A stretch of 54,913 nt of DNA, taken from assembly GCA_001797495.1 (NCBI GenBank), contig MGPS01000013.1, forward strand, positions 21,258 to 76,170, written 5' to 3'. This DNA is from Deltaproteobacteria bacterium GWC2_42_11 (GTDB lineage: Bacteria; Desulfobacterota; GWC2-55-46; UBA9637; GWC2-42-11). Made by a program: the position numbers and the translations under genes. The notes beneath the pieces were generated by a model. That model was not told the DNA's origin and made no database searches. It worked only from the letters and a program-made list of their open reading frames with translations. Positions 4,992 through 49,617 of this stretch are shown here, piece after piece (position 1 is the first letter of the stretch; every line of letters begins with the position of its first letter).

Positions 4992-5006
4992 AAAAGTAAC
5001 CTCTTT

Positions 5007-5801
5007 CTACTGCTTTGTCTCTAACATCTTGAGGAGTGTATCTGCATCAATATATCCCGGTATTGTCCTGCCATCAGGCAGAATGATGAATGGTGTGCCG
5101 CTTATCCCGAGTGTTTTGGCGAGTTTTATATTTTCATCTATTTCCTTTGCCTCACATTCAGGTTTTGGCAGTTCCTTGCCTTCAAAGGCGTTTTCCAGCA
5201 TTTTTATAGACTTTTTGCACAGGATTGTCTTGGATTTTTCATATGCCTTTGGATGGGACGGCAGGGGATAGAGTTTTATGTAAAAGGCAATATCTTTCCT
5301 TTTTTCAATAATCTTTTTTGCCTCTCCATGTAGTTCCCTGCAGTACGGACAGTCAGGGTCATCGAAGATTATTATCTTTATGGGTGCATTTGGACTGCCC
5401 ATTACAAGTGCATCTCCAAGTGGGATTTGGCTAGGGTCAATCTTTTTTGCAGGCGCAGGCTTGCCTATATCTCCGACAGGTATAAACCTTGCCAGTAGGA
5501 TATATTTCTTTGCAAAGTCCAGATATACAGTGAAATTCTTGCCTTCTTGAACTCCGTTTATCTCCCAGAGTCCCTTGACAGGGCTCATCTTTACAGACAT
5601 GACATCCGCCTTTAAAATATTTTTAGCCTCTTCTGTTGTGAGAGTATGGCATGATATGCACTCTGCACCGCAGCCTGCCCCTTGTTGTACCTGTCCATTG
5701 ACCTGAAATGCCCTGACAGGATATGGGTTCAGAAAAACTGCACATGCACCACAGGCTAAAATTAGTATACTTATTATTTTTTTCACTGATGTACCTCGCA
5801 T
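5007..5801 (-). CDS. DsbC/DsbG-like thiol:disulfide interchange protein with an extra N-terminal CXXCH motif
   Basis: It has a signal peptide (the MRGTSVKKIISILILACGA start at 5801 is preferred over 5876), the thioredoxin motif DCPYC, and CISCH at 5646-5660. Confidence 0.75.
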   Translation of the reverse strand: MRGTSVKKIISILILACGACAVFLNPYPVRAFQVNGQVQQGAGCGAECISCHTLTTEEAKNILKADVMSVKMSPVKGLWEINGVQEGKNFTVYLDFAKKYILLARFIPVGDIGKPAPAKKIDPSQIPLGDALVMGSPNAPIKIIIFDDPDCPYCRELHGEAKKIIEKRKDIAFYIKLYPLPSHPKAYEKSKTILCKKSIKMLENAFEGKELPKPECEAKEIDENIKLAKTLGISGTPFIILPDGRTIPGYIDADTLLKMLETKQ

Positions 5802-5938
5802 ATTGTTTTTTATAGTCCATATTTTTAATATATTAAGTCTGTGATTGCAAGGGTTATTTCCAAAAAAACCTTGCAATGCAATATGGATTTGGTAAATTGG
5901 TTGCCTGAATATTGCATCCCTTTCATAATCCTGAAATT

Positions 5939-8077
5939 ATGGCAAAAGACCTTTTAATAGAGATTGGTACAGAAGAGATACCCGCTGGCTTTATCCCGAA
6001 GGCGCTTGAATCATTTTCCAGCCTTTTAAAAACTGCATTCACTGAAAAAAATATTAACTTTCAAAACATTGCAGCACTTGGCACACCCCGCAGACTGACA
6101 ATCCATGTCTCTTCTCTTGATGAAAAACAGCCTGATTCTGCTGCCACAATAACAGGACCTGCAAAAAAGGCTGCATTTGATGAGAACGGCAATCCGACAA
6201 AAGCAGGAGAGGGTTTTGCCCGCTCTCATGTGGTGCAGGTAAAAGACCTGTCAATTGTCAAGACTGAAAAAGGCGAATATGTTTGTATAAAAAAAGAGGT
6301 AAAGGGAAGAAAAACAGAATCCATCCTTGAAGAAACCCTGCCTTATATTATAAGTGCCATACCATTTCCAAAAACAATGAGATGGGGAAACTCTGATATT
6401 AGTTTTGCAAGGCCAATACACTGGATAACTGCACTATTCGGGGATAAGGTTGTAAATTTTAAACTCGGACATATAAAGAGCGGCAACATTTCCTATGGGC
6501 ACAGGTTTTTAAACCCAAAACCATTTAAAGTTGACAGCCTTGAGACCTATCTAAAAAAGACAAAATCTGCAAATGTAATAATAAATCCATCTGAACGAAA
6601 AGAACTGATAGCAAAAAAGGTTGATGAGTCTGCAAAAAATGCAGGTAGTGTGTGCCTTCAGGATGAAGGTCTTCTTGACGAGGTAACAAACCTTGTAGAA
6701 TATCCTGTTTGCCTTCGCGGAAATTTTGATAAAGAATTTTTAAGCCTTCCAAAAGAGGTTATTATAAATGCCATGAGAGAGCACCAGAGATATTTTTCTG
6801 TCGTTGATAAACACGGAAATCTCCTTCCATATTTTATATTTGTTGCAAATACAAAAGCAAAAGACCCGAAGATTGTAATAAAGGGGAATGAAAGGGTTTT
6901 AAGGGCAAGGTTAAATGATGCAAAATTCTATTTTAATAAGGATGTAAATATCCCTCTGGCACAAAGGGTTTCCGCACTTAAAGGTGTTATCTTTCAGGCA
7001 AAACTCGGAACATCCTATGAAAAGGTTGAAAGGTTTACAAGACTTGCAGTGCATATCGGTCATGCGATTGGTTTCTGTGAACCGATGAATGAAGGGGTTG
7101 AGATTTTCTTGCAAGATCCCAGATCCCAAACCCCAGACCCCAGATTTATCCTTGCTCGTGCCTCAATGCTCTGCAAGGCTGACCTTGTTACAGGCATGGT
7201 TAGTGAATTTCCAAAACTTCAGGGGATTATGGGTAAAGAATACGCACTTAAATCAGGAGAATCCAAAGAAGTTGCAGATGCGATATATGAACACTATCTG
7301 CCTATAAAGGCAGAAGGTGAATTACCAAAAAAAGAGGCAGGTGCAATAATAAGCATTGCAGACAAGATGGATACAATATGCGGTTGTTTCAGTGTTGGTC
7401 TTATCCCAACAGGAGGGACAGACCCTTACGGACTGCGGAGGCAGGCGCTTGGCATCATGGCAATAATCATTGATAAAAGCCTTGTCCTGCTTATTGATGA
7501 ACTGGTTGATAAATCCATTGAGATATTAAAGGATAAGATTAAAAGACCAGTTCAGGAGATTAAAAAGGATGTCTTGGAATTTTTCAAGGAAAGGATTAGA
7601 AACCATCTTTTATCACAGGGGTATTCATTTGATTCCACTGATGCAGTTTTATCAGCAAACTGGTATGATATAAACGATGCAGTAAAAAGAATAAAGGCCC
7701 TTGAAGGATTCAAGAAAAACCCTGCATGCAGTGCGCTTACAATTGCATTCAAGAGGGTATCAAATATACTAAAGGGGCAAGAGGCAGGGGTCAAGGGTCA
7801 AAAGATTGATACATCTCTTTTTGAGTATCCAAATGAAAAGGAACTTTTTGAGATTACACAAAGGATAGCACCTGATATAAATAGATACTGGAAGGAAGGC
7901 AATTATGAAAAAGTCTTTGAGACCCTTGCATCATTAAAAGGCATAATAGATACATTCTTTGATAAGGTTATGGTTATGGTGGAAGATGAAAAGGTGAGGG
8001 ATAATCGTCTGATTTTACTTAATATGGTCAGGAACCTTTATTATCAGATTGCAGATTTGTCAAAACTGACAACATAA
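5939..8077 (+). CDS. glyS: glycine--tRNA ligase beta subunit
   Basis: The LLIEIGTEEIPA N-terminus and overall length are typical of GlyS. The ATG at 5939 is preferred over the track start at 5912. Confidence 0.93.
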   Translation: MAKDLLIEIGTEEIPAGFIPKALESFSSLLKTAFTEKNINFQNIAALGTPRRLTIHVSSLDEKQPDSAATITGPAKKAAFDENGNPTKAGEGFARSHVVQVKDLSIVKTEKGEYVCIKKEVKGRKTESILEETLPYIISAIPFPKTMRWGNSDISFARPIHWITALFGDKVVNFKLGHIKSGNISYGHRFLNPKPFKVDSLETYLKKTKSANVIINPSERKELIAKKVDESAKNAGSVCLQDEGLLDEVTNLVEYPVCLRGNFDKEFLSLPKEVIINAMREHQRYFSVVDKHGNLLPYFIFVANTKAKDPKIVIKGNERVLRARLNDAKFYFNKDVNIPLAQRVSALKGVIFQAKLGTSYEKVERFTRLAVHIGHAIGFCEPMNEGVEIFLQDPRSQTPDPRFILARASMLCKADLVTGMVSEFPKLQGIMGKEYALKSGESKEVADAIYEHYLPIKAEGELPKKEAGAIISIADKMDTICGCFSVGLIPTGGTDPYGLRRQALGIMAIIIDKSLVLLIDELVDKSIEILKDKIKRPVQEIKKDVLEFFKERIRNHLLSQGYSFDSTDAVLSANWYDINDAVKRIKALEGFKKNPACSALTIAFKRVSNILKGQEAGVKGQKIDTSLFEYPNEKELFEITQRIAPDINRYWKEGNYEKVFETLASLKGIIDTFFDKVMVMVEDEKVRDNRLILLNMVRNLYYQIADLSKLTT

Positions 8078-43898: not shown

Positions 43899-44785
43899 CT
43901 GAAATACCCAAACTCCCTTAACACCCTTGTATCTTCAGTCCACTTTTCCTGAACCCGCACAAAAAGTTTTAAGAAAACCCTTGTCCCAAGGAGTTTCTCT
44001 ATATCAAGCCTTGCACGGGTGCCTATCTCTTTCAGCATACTGCCTTTTTTACCGATTATGATGCCCTTTTGTGATTCTCTTTCCACATTTATTGCTGCCA
44101 TTATCCGCACAAGATTTTTCCCTGTTTCTTCCCTGAACTCTTCTATCTGGATAGCAGTGGAATAAGGTACCTCCTCTTTAGTGAGTTCAAAGACCTTTTC
44201 CCTTATAATCTCTGCAGCAAGAAATTTTTCAGGCAGGTCAGTCAATATGTCTTCAGGGAAATATTTTGGACCCTCTGGCAGTAATCCTATAACCTTTTCA
44301 AGCAGTATGTCTATACCGTCATTCTTTATGCAGGATATTGGTATAACCTCTTCAAATTTATGCAGGCTGGAATATCCCTTAATAATGGGCAGCAGTGTGT
44401 CCTTCTTAATAAGGTCTATTTTGTTTATGCACAGGATTACAGGATTTTTAACACGTTTTAAGAGACTAATGTTATATCTCTCGTTATCGTCCAGTGGTTT
44501 ATTAGCAGCGATCATGTAAATAATTATGTCGACATCCCTAAGCGAAGACAGTGCCTGTTTCATCATCATCGCGTTAAATTCTGATTTTGTCCTGTGTATG
44601 CCGGGTGTGTCCAGAAAAATGATCTGGCAGTCTTTAAGGTTTTTTATGCCCGTTATCTTATTACGCGTGGTCTGCGGTTTTGTGGATACAATTGCAACCT
44701 TTTCACCCACGAGAATATTCAGGAGTGTTGATTTCCCGACATTCGGACTCCCTATTATTGAAACAAAACCTGATTTAAAAGACAT
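43895..44785 (-). CDS. era: GTPase Era
   Basis: GSPNVGKST, DTPG, NKID and a C-terminal KH domain. Confidence 0.95.
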   Translation of the reverse strand: MSFKSGFVSIIGSPNVGKSTLLNILVGEKVAIVSTKPQTTRNKITGIKNLKDCQIIFLDTPGIHRTKSEFNAMMMKQALSSLRDVDIIIYMIAANKPLDDNERYNISLLKRVKNPVILCINKIDLIKKDTLLPIIKGYSSLHKFEEVIPISCIKNDGIDILLEKVIGLLPEGPKYFPEDILTDLPEKFLAAEIIREKVFELTKEEVPYSTAIQIEEFREETGKNLVRIMAAINVERESQKGIIIGKKGSMLKEIGTRARLDIEKLLGTRVFLKLFVRVQEKWTEDTRVLREFGYFR

Positions 44786-44883
44786 GATTATAAAATACCA
44801 CCCAGTAAAACAGTTGTCAATCTATGACGGGACTAAATATGAACCTACAGGAGGCTTATCTTACAAAGGGGCATGAAAATCTC

Positions 44884-44981
44884 GCTGCTGCCTGCCCCGC
44901 CAGTGGCACAGGCTTCCAGCCTGTGATGATAGGCAAGATGCCTGTCCCACCAGGTTTGTAGGCGGGGCAGGCAGCAACAGC
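44884..44981. repeat. about 100 nt branched palindrome (15 bp outer stem enclosing two hairpins)
   Basis: GCTGCCTGCCCCGCC (44887-44901) pairs with GGCGGGGCAGGCAGC (44961-44975). Inner hairpins are CACAGGC/GCCTGTG and AGGCA/TGCCT. Confidence 0.6.
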
Positions 44982-45013
44982 AAAAAGATATTTTCGGGCA
45001 AAGGTATAGGTAA

Positions 45014-45198
45014 CCGTAAAATAGCGATTAAAAACCTCGCTATTTTACAAACCTGCGATTTGGCTGCCATACTTCGTTATCGGCCAATTTTTATTCCTCA
45101 CCGTATCGGTGAACATACGGCTCGTCTCAAAAATTGTCCGCTGCCTCGTCTGGCAGCCAACTTGCAGGTTTCCCCAAAAATCAATGTCTATTTTTGGG
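45014..45198 (+). mobile_element. MITE family 1, full-length copy B (185 bp), flanked by the 6 bp direct repeat AGGTAA
   Basis: It is the near-identical reverse complement of 16688..16871. AGGTAA is found at 45008-45013 and 45199-45204. Confidence 0.8.
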
Positions 45199-45212
45199 AG
45201 GTAAAATGGGGG

Positions 45213-45241
45213 TTGACAATGTAATTGTGTGATGATATTTT
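45213..45241 (+). promoter_or_regulatory. putative sigma70 promoter for tRNA-Ala
   Basis: TTGACA (45213-45218), a 17 nt spacer, then TATTTT (45236-45241), about 20 nt upstream of the tRNA 5' end. It shares the TATTTTTAAT context with the ffh promoter. Confidence 0.5.
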
Positions 45242-45261
45242 TAATCTCAGAGAATGGTAAT

Positions 45262-45337
45262 GGGGCTGTAGCTCAGTTGGGAGAGCGACAGGCTGGCAGT
45301 CTGTAGGTCAGGGGTTCGATCCCCCTCAGCTCCACCA
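45262..45337 (+). tRNA. tRNA-Ala (anticodon GGC)
   Basis: A 76 nt cloverleaf folded by hand: acceptor GGGGCTG/CAGCTCC with the G3:U70 Ala identity pair, anticodon loop CTGGCAG, a GGTTCGATCC T arm, and an encoded CCA. Confidence 0.93.
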
Positions 45338-45359
45338 GAAAAATCAAGGGATTGCAGAA

Positions 45360-45527
45360 TTATACGACATTAGAAACACCGTTGAAACCCCTTACTGTGA
45401 TAAAATTGTGATACTTTTCCCCGTGCAAAGTCTTGTCCATCACATCTACTGCTTTAGCCTTATGGCTTGGTGCAAGGTGAGCATACCTCATAGATCCTAA
45501 TTTGGCATTTGCATAATGCCTCGTCAA
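45360..45527 (-). pseudogene. 3' remnant of a tyrosine recombinase (integrase) gene next to tRNA-Ala
   Basis: The minus-strand frame reads ...GSMRYAHLAPSHKAKAVDVMD...*. This is the catalytic-Tyr RYAHL C-terminal box of phage-type integrases, with no upstream body. Confidence 0.55.
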
Positions 45528-45771
45528 TTATAATGCAATCCTTATCTCTCCAAAGCGACTGGGGGTCGAGCCGTGCCCTTTCCATAATGTCATAGTCATC
45601 CATGGTTATATAGGCAAAGTCCTGAAATTCATTCCGAAGCATGGTGCTTTTACCTACCTGCCGCGCTCCAGTCACCACGACAACAGAGAATATTGCGGTA
45701 GTTTGCCTCATTATTGGCGCCAACCTGCGTTTTATGTAATTTATTTCAGTATGCGAAATATTATCTTTCAT
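45460..45771 (-). pseudogene. 5' fragment of an AAA_14/DUF4143-family ATPase gene
   Basis: Walker A GARQVGKST and Walker B IIIDE are present, but homology stops near 45520 and the tail is unrelated sequence. Confidence 0.6.
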
Positions 45772-45931
45772 GGTTTAAAATATGCTGCTGTACTATCGCT
45801 TTGTCAACAGGTTTTTGCTATCTAAACAATACCCGAGTAATAAAATGGGCAGTTCTATTTAAACTGCTCTGATTGGCATGTATCAGAGGTATTGCACCTT
45901 CTGGATTTTTCCTCCCATCTTTTCACCCTAC

Positions 45932-46000
45932 CTACTTCATGACAGCCGTTGACAAAAACTCCTCAATAGAGATGCCGATTCCACCGACCAGCAGTTTCTT
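45932..46000 (-). pseudogene. 3'-terminal fragment of a DUF4143 ATPase paralog
   Basis: It reads KKLLVGGIGISIEEFLSTAVMK*, matching the C-terminus of the 46185..47147 ORF (KKLVVGGSGISIEEFLSTAVMEWVK*). Confidence 0.6.
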
Positions 46001-46113
46001 TACAAATTACTCAAAATTATTAAACCCCACTGACCAACCTTTGTCGCAGCCCTCTGGTATTTTGTCCTTAAAAATAGTATTGTTTGTCTGACAAAATAAG
46101 GAGGTTAAACCTT

Positions 46114-46185
46114 ATACCCCTCTATTCCCACAGCAGATTATCCACATACGAAACCTGCCCCCTCAAATATAAACTCCAATATCTT
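46114..46185 (+). pseudogene. 5' fragment of a Cas4-like PD-(D/E)XK nuclease gene (start codon mutated to ATA)
   Basis: It reads IPLYSHSRLSTYETCPLKYKLQY and parallels the 47619 copy. It is preceded by AAGGAGG and ends at the junction with the ATPase 3' end. Confidence 0.5.
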
Positions 46186-47376
46186 TATTTTACCCACTCC
46201 ATAACAGCCGTTGATAAAAACTCTTCAATAGAGATGCCGGAGCCGCCAACCACCAGTTTCTTTTGTGGTTTGAAGATAGAAAAAAATGCCTCCATTCCTG
46301 CAAGGGTATCCTTACTTCTGCCGCTTTTTACCTCTATTGCAACAATGATTTTGCCCAGACGCATGACAAAGTCCACCTCCTTGCCCCGTTCGCGCCAGTA
46401 AAACACCTCTGCCTTTGTGCTGGTTGTGCCATTAACCAAATGAGCGCCAACAGCCGTTTCCACCAGCCTGCCCCAAAAGTCGCGATTGGTTATGACTGTG
46501 TCAAATGAGATATTAGACTGAGCAGTCATCAGCGCTGTATTCAGAACCTGCATCTTCGGGCTTGACCCCCGCTGTTTAATCTGTTTTCCGGCAAATTTCT
46601 GCAAGCCTGTCAACATGCCGGCGCCTGCGAGCAGTTCTAGATAATGTGCAAGGGTTGTGGTGTTGCCTGCATCCTGCAACTGCCCCAGCATCTTTTGGTA
46701 GGATAAAATTTGGCCTGAATAATCACAGCCTAAAAGAAACAGTCTTCTGAGCAGCGCCGGCTTGTCCACGCGGGTCATAAGAAGAATATCCCTTGAGAGA
46801 GTAGTCTCAATCAGCGAGTCAATAATATACCGCGACCAGCGCTCCTGATCATCTATTAAACCGGCTGCACCGGGATAGCCGCCGAAATATATAAACTGCT
46901 CAACATCCCAGCCAAAGGCATCTTTCATTTCAGAGAATGACCAGTGGGTAAGGGGGATAATCTCAAAACGTCCTGCAAGGCTTTCAGTCAACCCGTGCTG
47001 GATAAAAAGCGGAGATGAGCCAAGCAATACAACCTTCAGCCGAGTTTTTTTAGCAGTATCTTCGTCCCACAGACGCTTTACAATCTCAGACCAGCCTGAT
47101 ACCTTCTGCACCTCATCAAGGGCAAGAAGCGTCCCCCCTTTTTTCATTTTTCCTTGCTTGAAGCCTGCCTATTTCCCATTGCTGCTCAATCCAAACCGCG
47201 CTTTTCAATGTCGGCTCATCTGCTGATGCATAATGACTGGGAACCTTGAGCGCCTCTATAACCTGTCTTATCAGGGTGGTTTTACCCACCTGCCTCGGCC
47301 CTGCCAGAACCTGCAGAAATCTCCTCGGCTCCTTAAGTCTTGATAAAAGGGTCTTATATATGGGACGGCTATACAT
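46185..47376 (-). pseudogene. AAA_14 + DUF4143 ATPase (C-terminal PD-(D/E)XK-like domain), frameshifted in an A6G6 run
   Basis: The N-terminal ORF 47116..47376 has Walker A GPRQVGKTT. The body ORF 46185..47147 starts at LLALDEVQK (Walker B) and ends with EVDFV...AIEVKSG. The frames meet at GAAAAAAGGGGGG (plus strand 47133-47144). Confidence 0.75.
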
Positions 47377-47434
47377 TACGAAACCTCAATTTAAGTCCAT
47401 AAAATGCAGCGATAACAAAAGGTTGCAGGCTTGC

Positions 47435-47474
47435 TTACAAATTACTCAATATCTTGAGTAATTTTACTCAAAAT
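47435..47474. promoter_or_regulatory. operator-like site with three TTACTCAA half-sites in the divergent ATPase/nuclease intergenic region
   Basis: The sequence TTACAAATTACTCAATATCTTGAGTAATTTTACTCAAAAT contains the perfect palindrome ATTACTCAA-TATC-TTGAGTAAT. A collapsed version, TTACAAATTACTCAAAAT, recurs at 46000-46017. Confidence 0.5.
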
Positions 47475-47618
47475 AGAATAAATGTCAAATGTTTTAATCT
47501 TTAAAGATTGACAGGCTTTTGTTAAAGGTGTAAGATTTAAAATACTGACAGATGGAAACGATTCAACATTGTTCAAAAAATAAAGACAACCGCAAAGGTA
47601 TTTAAGGAGCCTCATTGT

Positions 47619-47750
47619 ATGCCCATCTATTCCCACAGCAAATTATCTACCTACGAAACCTGTCCTCTCCAATACAAACTTCAATTATTGATAATGATGA
47701 GATTACAAAGAAGGGCGTTATCACCTCACCCACTCCATAACAGCCGTTGA
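47619..47750 (+). pseudogene. 5' fragment of a Cas4-like PD-(D/E)XK nuclease gene
   Basis: MPIYSHSKLSTYETCPLQYKLQ is the usual N-terminus of PDDEXK_1-type nucleases. The ORF then runs into a third copy of the ATPase 3'-end sequence and stops. Confidence 0.55.
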
Positions 47751-47767
47751 CAAAAACTCCTCAATAG

Positions 47768-48565
47768 TCTGATGGCGGTAAATTACCTCATGCAAAGAAT
47801 AAAAATGTAAATGAAATAGTTAACTACTTTGCTGCATTACGGTATATCTCAAAACATGCAAATAAAAGAAGTATATCTCAAAACGATATATTAAAAATTC
47901 ATAAAATCATAGGTGAGGGTGTTCTTGAAAGGGAACCTGTAGGGGCATCCAGAACATACCATATGTATGTAGGAAATCATGTTCCGCCAAAATATGAAGA
48001 TGTTTCCATGCTGGCAGGTGAATTTCTTGAGGGGTTAAACGGTCAAGGACGATCTCTGCCTGCTGTATTTTCCTCTGCCATTCTTCATTATCAATTTGAA
48101 TTTATCCATCCCTTTGGTGATGGTAATGGAAGGGTGGGATGTGTTCTTGCCACATGGGAATTATACAAAAGAAAATTTGATACTCACCATATCTTTTCAG
48201 TTGATGAAGTTTTCTGGGAAAGCAGGCAAAGGTATTATGCTGCTTTGGATAATGTCCGTCAGCAAAAAGAAGACCTCACAGGCCGGCTGGAATTTATTGC
48301 AGAAGCAGTGGAACTTACACTTGAAAGGATGTGGATGAGGATTGAATCTATTAAATTAGAAGGTAAAAAAGGTTCTATTGCTTTGACCCCTAAACAGGAA
48401 AAACTTCTGCATTTACTCAGAGAAACGTCATTAAATATAAAAGAGATTCAATCTGAGTTGAAAGTAACCAAGCAGGGGGCGCATTTTATTTTAAAACCTT
48501 TATTGCAAGATAGCCTTGTTAAACGGATTGGCGGACATAAGACTGGTAAGTATAGGTTGTCTTAA
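47768..48565 (+). pseudogene. Fic-domain protein with C-terminal wHTH, 5'-truncated
   Basis: It has the Fic motif HPFGDGNGRVG. The frame is open back to 47768 with no start codon before the ATG at 47963, and it abuts the ATPase 3'-end repeat. Confidence 0.7.
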
Positions 48566-48654
48566 CTAAATGGGAAGTTAATAGGTTTTTAAAATGGCGT
48601 AGAATATTCTATGCCCCTTTTTATTTTTATCACTTATTCACGGATTGACTGATA

Positions 48655-49617
48655 ATGGACCCAATAACGCATGGTTTTTCAGGCATACTTATATCAAGGA
48701 CAGGTTTTTATCAGAGATGGGGAAGGGCAGCAAGCATTACCTTTGTTGCAGGTGCACTCATCCCTGATATTGACCACTTTACACTCCGTCTTGCAGGACC
48801 TGTTGCATACCTGAAATACCACAGGGGCTTTACCCATTCCATCATCGGCATAATCCCGCTTGCACTAATCATTGCATTTATTGTCCCCATGTTTTTCAAA
48901 CAGATAAGAGGAAAGGCGGATTATCTGACTTTTGCCGGCATGAGTGCTCTCGGCATCGGTACACACATATTCCTTGACATTATAACATCCTACGGCACAC
49001 AGGTGTTTTTCCCGTTTGATACATCCAGATACAGCCTTGACCTTGTATTCATAATTGACCCATATTTTTCCCTTATATTCATACTGCCGCCGCTCTTATG
49101 GATATTCATGAAAGACAGGGCAAAGATGATTGCATTTACTGCCATTATACTGATAGCCGCTTACCTTACAATGGCATATGTATTCAAAGGCATTGCCGTA
49201 CACAGGGCTGAAAAGGAAGCGGCAGGGATGTCTATAAATCCATCAAGGGTTGAGGCAGTCCCGCTGCCGTTTTCTCCATTCAAATGGTCTGTGTTTGTTG
49301 AAGATAAAGATAAATTCTACCAGATGAATGTGGATATACTCAGAGATAAAATATCTAAAGAGGCATTTGATAAGGTGTCTGCACAGGATGACATAATAAA
49401 AAAGGCTGAAACTCTTGAAGTGGTAAAGATATATAGGTGGTTTGCCAGATTTCCTGTTATCACCGCGGTTGAGTTGGGAGATGATTATGTTATTGAATAT
49501 TATGACATCAGATTTAATTCCATGCCGCCAAGAAAACCGTTTCTCCTAAAGGTTGTTCTGAATAAAAATGGTTCTTTCAAGGAAGGAGAACTCTCTTTTC
49601 ACAGTATAAAACCGTAA
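48655..49617 (+). CDS. DUF457/YdjM-family membrane-bound metal-dependent hydrolase
   Basis: MDPITHGFSG start, IPDIDH, several TM helices, and a soluble C-terminal extension. Confidence 0.7.
   Translation: MDPITHGFSGILISRTGFYQRWGRAASITFVAGALIPDIDHFTLRLAGPVAYLKYHRGFTHSIIGIIPLALIIAFIVPMFFKQIRGKADYLTFAGMSALGIGTHIFLDIITSYGTQVFFPFDTSRYSLDLVFIIDPYFSLIFILPPLLWIFMKDRAKMIAFTAIILIAAYLTMAYVFKGIAVHRAEKEAAGMSINPSRVEAVPLPFSPFKWSVFVEDKDKFYQMNVDILRDKISKEAFDKVSAQDDIIKKAETLEVVKIYRWFARFPVITAVELGDDYVIEYYDIRFNSMPPRKPFLLKVVLNKNGSFKEGELSFHSIKP

Follow-up and report, generated by a model that had tools for sequence, protein, structure and literature searches.

PDC-S01 (COG1373; Pfam AAA_14 plus DUF4143) is a PADLOC defence candidate made up of an AAA+ ATPase, a wHTH and a PD-(D/E)XK nuclease domain. 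It has been described, with candidate status only, as a fusion of an AAA+ ATPase with a PD-(D/E)XK domain (PMC12988326), and DUF4143 has been classed among the PD-(D/E)XK families (PMC3424549); one PDC-S01 representative did not protect against T4, T5 or T7 (bioRxiv 10.1101/2024.09.26.614923). The other described systems closest to the locus analysed here are the Cas4/RecB-family exonucleases (PDDEXK_1; PHROG 69 phage exonuclease), the Fic-domain defence-associated protein SoFic, and the tRNA-linked genomic and defence islands that act as recombination hotspots. Homology-facilitated illegitimate recombination combines one homologous anchor with a microhomology join.

The locus occupies positions 45338-48565 of the window, that is, of the whole 54,913-nt stretch of DNA analysed. 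Like the tRNA-linked islands, it lies directly 3' of a tRNA gene and contains defence-type genes only, all of them fragmentary; unlike them, it showed neither an integrase that could be verified nor a direct repeat derived from the tRNA 3' end. One of its ATPase genes matches PDC-S01 end to end but is frameshifted, and the other copies are stubs. The exonuclease relatives have the Cys arrangement of Cas4, whereas only 23-35 codons of the gene are left in the window. We conclude, with a probability of roughly 0.65, that the interval is a non-functional recombination scrapyard, built from serial PDC-S01 blocks and phage-type exonuclease starts and later pared down by deletions. It is an ordinary decaying defence islet and not a new two-gene system, since it consists of broken PDC-S01 copies, phage-type exonuclease starts and a beheaded Fic gene.

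Results

Layout of the array

The features of the interval and its left border are as follows.

45262-45337, plus strand: tRNA-Ala, anticodon GGC (ARAGORN; Rfam tRNA-like match), gene intact with its CCA end; left border of the scrapyard
45360-45490, minus strand: short open reading frame tail with MRYAHLAPSHKAKAVDVMDK (from the ORF list; string MRYAHLAPSH within 45360-45527), resembling a tyrosine-recombinase C-terminus at the motif level only
about 45490-45771, minus strand: AAA_14 5' fragment, about 94 codons, ending after Walker B
45912-46001, minus strand: ATPase-A remnant (repeat families, self-blastn/tblastx), last ~27 codons with in-frame stops, MK* replacing MEW
46002-46112, no strand: intergenic region A, with one operator half-site (TTACAAATTACTCAA, 46000-46017)
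46113-46184, plus strand: nuclease-A start, codons 1-23, start codon now ATA
46185-47376, minus strand: ATPase-B, the sole full-length ATPase, a PDC-S01 gene (AAA_14 plus DUF4143 / PD-(D/E)XK)
47377-47617, no strand: intergenic region B, with back-to-back predicted promoters (promoter scan, inverted repeats)
47618-47717, plus strand: nuclease-B start, ATG and about 35 codons with one internal frameshift (tblastn to P0127, alignment)
47718-47767, minus strand: ATPase-C remnant, last ~16 codons (…SIEEFLSTAVMEWVR*), 88-95% identical to copies A and B by blastn
47768-48565, plus strand: SoFic-like Fic gene from which some 88 N-terminal residues are missing (Pfam Fic E 1.4e-11)

Self-comparison (blastn/tblastx) bears out the repeated unit of ATPase end, intergenic region and nuclease start that an earlier note on this DNA had described, the repeats scoring BLAST E values of 1e-13 to 1e-18 inside 3.5 kb. 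The ATPase 3' end, which that note placed near 45940, 46205 and 47740, is indeed present in three copies (45920-45969, 46182-46231 and 47718-47767; 80-88% identical), and similarity between the first two extends to 90 nt. The nuclease N-terminus recurs at 46113-46180 and 47618-47685 (85% DNA identity; peptides IPLYSHSRLSTYETCPLKYKLQYL and MPIYSHSKLSTYETCPLQYKLQLL), matching the pair of starts read at 46114 and 47619, and both copies lead directly into an antisense ATPase 3' end, as had been claimed. At junction J1 the nuclease-A start is joined 2 nt past the ATPase-B stop codon, and at J2 the nuclease-B start is joined at the ATPase-C stop codon; in these, as in junction J3 of a related locus described below, nuclease codons 14-35 are joined at most 7 nt from the ATPase stop codon. 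The ATPase-A remnant is joined directly to the operator half-site, and the ATPase-C remnant is fused to the truncated Fic gene. The two stubs, of 50-90 nt, are too short for phylogenetic placement. The divergent arrangement of ATPase and nuclease holds in both units A and B.

At least six independent assemblies contain the array, at 98.8-100% identity, and it is therefore neither a product of chance nor an assembly artefact. The ATPase-B frameshift is likewise common to at least six assemblies, and all contigs that span the interval with an identical Era or YdjM protein carry the same array. Apart from one patch, the strains do not differ in the host DNA around the array. A possible gene-conversion patch between paralogs was also observed.

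ATPases

The AAA_14 5' fragment reported near tRNA-Ala is real (Pfam E 1e-8). It carries a Walker A (GARQVGKS) and a Walker B (IIIDE) motif, is preceded by a promoter-like site (45807..45779, minus strand), and represents a separate PDC-S01-type ATPase of PADLOC subgroup PDLC04790 (E 1e-17). ATPase-B, the only near-complete copy, is frameshifted, as had been noticed: a 2-nt loss in an A6G6 run (C6T6 on the plus strand; 47133-47144), which reads A8G7 in the related locus L013, splits it into ORFs of 86 and 320 aa. When corrected for the frameshift, it matches PADLOC PDLC04791 with an E value of 9.6e-183 (residues 1-395 against profile positions 1-394/395), along with Pfam AAA_14 in two halves (E 2e-13 and 3e-7) and DUF4143 (E 4e-26), and its intact homologs, 397 aa long, are up to 95% identical to it. 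In the alignment of these homologs (numbered after P0001, which is 95% identical to ATPase-B; P#### denotes a homologous protein), Walker A residues G26, P27, R28 and Q29 are invariant and G31, K32, T33 and T34 are conserved at 90% or more; Walker B residues D88 and E89 are invariant, as are D336, E349 and K351, which make up the D...ExK module of a C-terminus with alpha-beta-beta-beta-alpha-beta topology. Both Walker motifs and the C-terminal restriction-like domain proposed from the letters are thus found. The accompanying statement that no function has been assigned to this ATPase is outdated, because the ATPase is the PDC-S01 of PADLOC, a single-gene defence candidate with a wide distribution. 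PDC-S01 is defined without an exonuclease, whereas in the clade of the window the ATPase shares its regulatory region with an exonuclease gene.

Nuclease starts and Fic gene

The nuclease N-terminal motif, YSHS.LSTYETCPL.YKL, matches the start of PDDEXK_1. The two window copies fall just under the Pfam cut-off of 22 bits (nuclease-A, E 3e-4 and 21.3 bits; nuclease-B, E 1e-3 and 19.6 bits), each over profile positions 3-25 only; the full-length relatives P0127 and that of locus L038 match at E 1e-32 to 1e-33 (L### denotes a comparison locus). The nuclease-A start is 75% identical to P0127 over 24 aa (tblastn) and shares 89% DNA identity with the start of the nuclease gene of L016; this DNA match and the full-length relatives show that the window fragments descend from a PDDEXK_1-type gene.

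Full-length nucleases such as P0127 connect these N-terminal fragments with Cas4-like C-terminal Cys clusters: a C-terminal CxxCxxxxxC cluster, with an N-terminal Cys before it, is found in P0127, P0126 and the remnants in L009 and L013. The window fragments retain only the first Cys (ETCP) and lack both the catalytic D...ExK core and the Cas4-type four-Cys cluster; no nuclease body was found anywhere in the 55-kb window. The relatives match Cas4 models weakly (E 1e-3 to 1e-11), and P0127, at 26.9 bits, stays below the TIGR00372 cut-off of 65 for Cas4 proper (CRISPR adaptation). Many relatives, unlike Cas4, are extended at the C-terminus by a further domain of some 140 aa (DUF7376, Sipho_Gp157-like), and no cas genes or CRISPR context were seen near the nuclease in the few loci inspected.

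The Fic gene at the end of the array is truncated, as described, with its N-terminus missing. Its reading frame begins directly after the ATPase-C stub, its longest ATG-started ORF spans 47963-48565, and a terminator-like hairpin follows at 48596-48615. It resembles SoFic (PADLOC, E 2e-43, profile positions 89-348 of 361) in retaining the HPFGDGNGR motif and the C-terminal wHTH, but differs in being cut at the ATPase-C stub junction. The HMM searches therefore supported AAA_14, DUF4143, Fic and, just under the cut-off, the PDDEXK_1 N-terminus, but not the integrase that had also been proposed.

Regulatory regions

The intergenic TTACTCAA-type sites seen by the earlier note are present at 46000-46017 and 47435-47475. 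Region A contains an RBS (AAGGAGG) for nuclease A, and its remainder is unalignable with region B. In region B a palindromic operator (47434-47475) overlaps the predicted ATPase promoter (TTGACA-16-TAAAAT; 47488..47461, minus strand), and the predicted nuclease promoter lies at 47508..47536 on the plus strand. Among PDC-S01 ATPases in general, 87 of 137 distinct upstream regions contain the operator, as against none of 137 downstream controls, and its conservation spans more than ten phyla.

Setting of the array

The ORF next to tRNA-Ala had been read as the 3' remnant of an integrase. The RYAHL-type motif is present, but the integrase identity finds no database support: the ORF with MRYAHLAPSH gave no integrase match in Pfam, NCBIfam, PHROGs or PDB, nothing by tblastn against phages and plasmids or among 5.8 billion proteins, and could not be aligned with the Xer recombinase encoded in the window. 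A direct repeat of the tRNA-Ala 3' end, sought as a mark of the far boundary, was not found, a 25-mer and a 16-mer of that end (up to 3 mismatches each) matching in the tRNA itself only. The restriction-modification systems thought to lie elsewhere in the window are absent from the nine large ORFs scanned there with Pfam, which comprise seven housekeeping genes, one Xer-type recombinase and one ORF without a Pfam match. We infer the island borders and a foreign origin from weak GC heterogeneity; no empty site was found in a sister genome.

Pairing of ATPase and nuclease in relatives

We fetched 160 ATPase loci, about 146 of them non-redundant, and searched for the nuclease by tblastn. It adjoins the ATPase only in the window clade (the window and L012; L009-L011 and L096; L013; L016) and in L038, where it lies downstream of the ATPase and is co-directional; L014 and L015 have a nuclease without the ATPase. 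The two genes had been expected to be conserved divergent neighbours in other genomes, and the earlier note named a lack of synteny between intact homologs as the finding that would speak against its proposal. Intact homologs are largely not syntenic, and adjacency is not conserved across the family as in an obligate two-gene system. The proposed ancestral module, a divergent ATPase and Cas4-like nuclease, holds in so far as the window fragments derive from such a pair and L016 has it intact, but the two genes are rarely adjacent.

In L016 the intact divergent pair shares the same intergenic region (84% DNA identity to the window), and a 42-nt copy of the nuclease start, with 1 mismatch, sits at the ATPase stop, where the join (J3) shows ACC microhomology. 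Junction J1 is found also in L009-L011 and L013; the J1 composite is 91-93% identical in L009 and L013, where it adjoins pcrA. Both of these loci have an intact ATPase and independent 5' deletions of the nuclease, and L009 has a further nuclease 3' remnant past the block. The cassette end lies at the stop codon (-10 to +6 nt) in 66 of the 110 locus pairs of at least 88% identity. Across the family, PDC-S01 cassettes have sharp ends and extend from the promoter to the stop codon, and pairs of 95-98.5% identity occur in unrelated contexts.

Discussion

From four lineages of one clade we infer the following order of events and recombination mechanism. A variable spot between tRNA-Ala and ydjM would have become a scrapyard for four generations of PDC-S01, represented by the distant-subtype 5' fragment, the 3' stubs A and C, and full-length B, which was probably killed by a 2-nt slip in its poly-A/G run. 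Copies A, B and C would each have moved in one block together with a phage-type, Cas4-like exonuclease gene and the regulatory region shared with it, and successive diverged blocks would have recombined into the 5' end of the resident exonuclease gene, the join being homologous on the nuclease side and illegitimate, via microhomology, at the ATPase stop codon. Because of such a one-sided homologous join, the older nuclease would be left with its first 14-35 codons abutting the 3' end of the newcomer ATPase. Later deletions would have taken away most of ATPase-A and ATPase-C, every nuclease body and the N-terminal part of the neighbouring SoFic-type gene. The composite of nuclease-A start, ATPase-B and intergenic region B presumably predates its arrival here, since it is present elsewhere in other contexts, and the 12-20% DNA divergence among A, B and C, taken with the identical host DNA, favours separate acquisitions over duplication in place. 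Homology-facilitated illegitimate recombination predicts the product that is seen, a resident nuclease start followed by incoming ATPase, intergenic region and nuclease, and the ACC microhomology at J3 fits it; on its own, however, it leaves unexplained why three joins lie within 7 nt of an ATPase stop, and this clustering may point to a more specific mechanism.

The array might instead be the decaying remains of an obligate divergent defence or mobile module of ATPase and Cas4-like nuclease. The intact pair of L016 with its single shared regulatory region, the divergence of both units A and B despite their diverged intergenic regions, the back-to-back promoters with an operator over that of the ATPase, and the second, independent adjacency in L038 would all suit such a module. 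We nevertheless consider it unlikely, given that about 140 non-redundant ATPase loci lack the nuclease, among them L001-L008 (89% identical to ATPase-B) and L039 (91% identical in DNA to the ATPase gene of L038), that the window, L009 and L013 have independently lost or truncated the nuclease, the latter two with the ATPase still intact, that the nuclease occurs alone or beside a WYL regulator, and that PADLOC treats PDC-S01 as a single-gene candidate. Decidedly doubtful is the idea that the PDC-S01 cassette is a homing-like selfish insertion into the first ~35 exonuclease codons, possibly by means of its own PD-(D/E)XK domain. It would account for the placing of nuclease codons 14-35 within 7 nt of the ATPase stop at J1, J2 and J3, for the 42-nt near-identical direct repeat flanking ATPase and intergenic region in L016, for the nuclease 5' and 3' remnants on either side of the L009 block, and for the sharp cassette ends family-wide; ATPase identities of 62-95% over more than ten phyla, which imply frequent transfer, agree with it too. 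Yet the junction positions are imprecise and all three come from one clade, other cassette borders have neither target-site duplications nor terminal repeats, more than 95% of cassettes lie in unrelated contexts that contain no remnant of the nuclease, and no cassette relative was found among 2.9 million viral contigs.

A further reading concerns ATPase-B only, which could be a contingency defence gene subject to phase variation, turned OFF when its A/G run slipped and able to revert. Its 1.2-kb reading frame is otherwise undamaged, the frameshift sits in a homopolymer tract, and relatives have long runs at the same place (L013, A8G7; L009, A8G4; L016, A7; L001, A8). Against these stand the identical OFF allele in all assemblies, even in that of a strain with differences elsewhere, and the tract itself, now only A6G6, in which 2 nt would have to change before the frame was regained; an intact copy of 89% identity at the same sites may moreover make ATPase-B redundant. 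Reversible switching is accordingly very improbable.

Under the scrapyard reading, a present-day function of the array components is not likely. The intact ATPase would most probably be an autorepressed, stand-alone ATP-dependent nuclease, and the exonuclease is most probably an occasional passenger of the ATPase rather than an obligate partner. A bolder proposal, which we hold to be rather unlikely, is that PDC-S01 genes are more than passive cargo of defence islands, being self-spreading promoter-to-stop units that in the clade of the window repeatedly capture the exonuclease 5' end as a homing-like target or recombination anchor; if this were true, the operator would be the site of autoregulation that allows the unit to move between phyla, and the window would be a fossil record of three capture events.

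The locus itself carries little weight, being dead DNA from gene families already catalogued. It provides a worked example of defence-islet turnover, in which diverged copies of one of the most abundant candidate defence genes would have arrived serially, with each predecessor truncated at break points that recur and with slippage in a homopolymer as the cause of inactivation. The operator, the sharp cassette borders and the possible gene-conversion patch could be useful for testing the function of PDC-S01 and the movement of single-gene cassettes.

Structure of the array

Between the only tRNA of the window (ARAGORN) and the next host gene, ydjM, lies an array of mostly truncated gene copies with the following plus-strand order, the coordinates of the ATPase-end and nuclease-start repeat blocks being given with the copies that contain them:

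45262-45337, tRNA-Ala(GGC)
45360-45527, short ORF tail with MRYAHLAPSH
5' ATPase fragment
ATPase-A, minus strand, 3' stub (end block 45920-45969)
intergenic region A, with one TTACTCAA site
nuclease-A, plus strand, start of a Cas4-like PD-(D/E)XK exonuclease gene (start block 46113-46180)
ATPase-B, minus strand, full-length and frameshifted (end block 46182-46231)
intergenic region B, with palindromic sites
nuclease-B, plus strand, start of the same kind of gene (start block 47618-47685)
ATPase-C, minus strand, 3' stub (end block 47718-47767)
Fic gene without its N-terminus
48655, start of ydjM (Pfam YdjM, E 7e-35)

The repeats claimed earlier from inspection of the sequence were recovered both by a repeat finder and by self-BLAST. 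The three copies of the ATPase-end block (50-90 nt; 80-88% identity, self-BLAST E 1e-13 to 1e-18) encode on the minus strand the final ATPase residues (…SIEEFLSTAVMEWVK*), and the two copies of the 68-nt nuclease-start block (85% identity) encode on the plus strand (M/I)P(L/I)YSHS(R/K)LSTYETCPL(K/Q)YKLQ. Contigs of at least six independent assemblies carry the same array with the same frameshift (98.8-100% identity); because of this concordance the array is real, and an assembly artefact is ruled out. An Rfam scan of 44700-48700 returned nothing besides the tRNA. The 476-nt spacer between era and the tRNA-Ala gene shows a 98-nt indel difference (45035-45132, missing in the related locus L185) that overlaps one of the two 24-nt arms of an inverted repeat (45049-45072 and 45148-45171) and has no Rfam family match.

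The only family assignment of the earlier note to fail is that of an integrase remnant next to the tRNA. The segment 45360-45527 had no significant integrase match in Pfam (up to E 10), NCBIfam, PHROGs or a phmmer search of PDB, in tblastn against phages and plasmids, or in a search of 5.8 billion proteins; its best phage integrase matches had E values of 6-9, and BLASTP against the Xer recombinase of the window itself gave nothing significant. At the level of the motif only, an integrase remnant is a possibility. A direct repeat of the tRNA-Ala 3' end, suggested as a mark of the far island border, was looked for and not found, and both the integrase and the island borders are unproven.

The ATPase is a catalogued defence candidate

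Pfam upheld the AAA_14 assignment for the 5' fragment (E 1e-8) and both halves of ATPase-B, as well as DUF4143 in ATPase-B (E 4e-26) and Fic (E 1e-11). The ATPase, half of a pairing that the earlier note took to lack an assigned function, is catalogued in PADLOC: the frameshift-corrected ATPase-B (396 aa) matches PDLC04791, a subgroup model of the single-gene phage-defence candidate PDC-S01, end to end (E 1e-182), and the 5' fragment matches a second PDC-S01 model (E 1e-17). PDC-S01, a fusion of an ATPase with a PD-(D/E)XK domain, has been ranked the fourth commonest defence (candidate) across prokaryotes, with validation pending (PMC12988326); DUF4143/COG1373 was already on the 2012 list of PD-(D/E)XK families (PMC3424549). 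One PDC-S01 representative did not protect against T4, T5 or T7 (bioRxiv 10.1101/2024.09.26.614923).

Across 41 aligned intact homologs, numbered after P0001 (95% identical to ATPase-B), Walker A residues G26, P27, R28 and Q29 are invariant and G31, K32, T33 and T34 nearly so, while D88 and E89 of Walker B and the C-terminal D336, E349 and K351 are invariant. The AlphaFold model of P0001 (pLDDT 70.6, middle third poor) has a C-terminal alpha-beta-beta-beta-alpha-beta unit, and Foldseek against PDB gave generic AAA+ matches only (ORC/Cdc6, RFC, ClpX; TM about 0.3); the predicted structure and its comparison bring no gain over the domain calls. A sequence search of PDB with the ATPase had zero matches. 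A viral origin was dropped, since no relative was found among the 2.9 million viral contigs of IMG/VR.

The frameshift of ATPase-B lies inside a homopolymer run (47133-47144), A6G6 in the window against A8G7 in the related locus L013; other relatives have A8G4 (L009), A7 (L016) or A8 (L001) at this site. In close relatives of this PDC-S01 clade, the long A/G runs lie within the coding region, about 15 codons ahead of Walker B, and form a built-in slippage hotspot. The nuclease-ATPase fusions create antisense ORFs (105 aa at 46084-46401; 82 aa in L016), which are regarded as by-products of ATPase coding constraint.

The nuclease and Fic fragments

The nuclease-A and nuclease-B starts score 21.3 and 19.6 bits against PDDEXK_1, just below the threshold of 22 and over the first 23 profile positions only. 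Their proposed identity as PD-(D/E)XK nucleases was settled by full-length relatives such as P0127 (258 aa), which begins MPTYSHSRLSTYETCPLQFKLHYID and ends CDWCDYWAYCPAKKH and matches PDDEXK_1 (E 1e-32) and the phage exonuclease family PHROG 69 (E 9e-32). A 409-aa exonuclease homolog (47% identity) is encoded at 4995-6224 of the viral contig L188 (IMGVR_UViG_3300009538_000029). The Fic gene matches PADLOC SoFic (E 2e-43), starting at position 89 of the 361-position profile. The N-terminal part of its truncated frame contains the 14-nt sequence GTATATCTCAAAAC twice without mismatch (47842-47855 and 47871-47884, 29 nt apart), a direct repeat that is probably due to chance.

Linkage of the ATPase to the nuclease

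Intact 397-aa ATPase homologs abound (each of the 8,000 candidates scored had E <1e-20), and those 62-95% identical come from Nitrospinota, Nitrospirota, Desulfobacterota, Planctomycetota, Verrucomicrobiota, Elusimicrobiota, Actinomycetota and others. With the full nuclease we searched 160 loci, 80 of them from species-representative genomes and the other 80 from metagenomes. In L016, which belongs to the window clade (88% protein identity), the divergent pair is intact and has the intergenic region seen in the window; nuclease remnants are found in L009-L011 (with L096) and L013 (94-95%), where L009 and L013 have two different deletions of the nuclease 5' part and an intact ATPase; and in L038 (69%) the nuclease lies downstream of the ATPase and is co-directional. 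It was not found in the remaining fetched loci outside the window clade, including L001-L008, whose ATPase is 89% identical to ATPase-B in protein sequence, and L039, whose ATPase gene is 91% identical in DNA to that of L038. The nuclease occurs without the ATPase in L014 and beside a WYL regulator in L015. The fragments of the window thus do derive from a divergent pair, as proposed, but the pair is not general: the conserved divergent neighbours expected in other genomes were seen in few of the 160 loci, and the linkage is lineage-specific and no obligate system.

A UvrD-type helicase beside the cassette in L009, L013 and L016 was rejected as a system partner, since it scores as the housekeeping protein PcrA (883 bits, cut-off 911) and has no such link in the window. 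L001-L008 share an identical mutL-ATPase locus, yet the sequence directly downstream differs between strains from about 7400 onward (a PemK toxin pair, a DUF4258 pair or a large protein), so that there, too, the ATPase borders a variable hotspot.

Operator and cassette borders

A GAGTA-N4-TACTC palindrome is conserved at the DNA level upstream of PDC-S01 ATPases in more than 10 phyla (loci L001-L175). It is exact in 87 of 137 distinct upstream regions and in none of 137 downstream controls, and 120 of the 137 upstream regions have at least two half-sites. It overlaps the -10 box of a TTGACA-N16/17-TAAAAT ATPase promoter, and at many loci the ATPase ATG directly follows the last half-site. In the window, the palindromic putative operator TGAGTAAAATTACTCA is accompanied by a TTGAGTAAATTGTA half-site (47434-47488). 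The ATPase's own wHTH would be the obvious candidate for its binder.

Among about 146 non-redundant loci compared in pairs at ≥88% DNA identity, 66 of 110 pairs lose homology between -10 and +6 nt from the stop codon, and at the other end 52 of 87 pairs lose it 61-125 nt ahead of the ATG. The members of four pairs that are 95-98.5% identical (L110/L113, L152/L158, L153/L156, L054/L164) lie in unrelated contexts with abrupt borders, at which no terminal repeats or target duplications were found. Faster decay of non-coding DNA could cause the border pattern in pairs at 88-92% identity, but cannot do so in pairs at ≥95%. Judged from these borders, PDC-S01 genes act as discrete cassettes about 1.3-1.4 kb long, each reaching from promoter to stop codon.

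Origin of the array and its junctions

The DNA of copies A, B and C diverges by 12-20% while the surrounding host DNA is identical between strains, so separate acquisitions would be favoured over tandem duplication in place. Duplication is further disfavoured by a composite partly shared with other genomes: window 46147-47606, which spans nuclease-A codons 12-23 through ATPase-B to intergenic region B, is 91-93% identical to L009 and L013, where the segment adjoins the 3' end of a PcrA-type helicase gene, and part of the composite would thus be older than its arrival here. The exonuclease start meets the ATPase stop codon at three different junctions.

Nuclease-ATPase junctions
Junction; nuclease side; ATPase side; location
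J1; codon 23; 2 nt beyond stop; window 46180, L009, L013
J2; codon ~35; at stop; window ~47712
J3; codon 14; last two codons replaced, ACC microhomology; L016

The ATPase and intergenic region of L016 are flanked by a direct repeat of 42 nt (2101-2142; 620-660), a copy of the nuclease start that has a single mismatch. A second, C-terminal nuclease remnant (66% identical) lies beyond the block in L009 (3928-4068), past TumE and MarR-like genes, and would fit insertion of the block into an older nuclease gene. We prefer an origin in which an incoming block would recombine with a resident nuclease gene, anchored there by homology, and the join would be closed illegitimately at the ATPase end of the block, giving the observed product of nuclease start and ATPase stop. 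There is a small chance that the recurrent junctions might reveal cassette movement.

One assembly, GCA_003532155.1 (L179, DOFD01000155.1), matches the window exactly across 4.4 kb except for two lone mismatches and a 382-nt patch inside ATPase-B (46680-47061). Of the 52 differences, 50 fall in this patch, mostly at third codon positions, and its sequence agrees fully (100% identity) with the mutL-linked ATPase of L001-L008, which is found at the same sites. The patch is either a gene conversion between paralogs or a metagenome assembly chimera.

The observation made in the earlier note is sound and its interpretation half right: the ATPase is the known single-gene candidate PDC-S01, its pairing with the nuclease is not general, and the locus is dead. 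It represents one more example of catalogued gene families rather than a new two-gene system.
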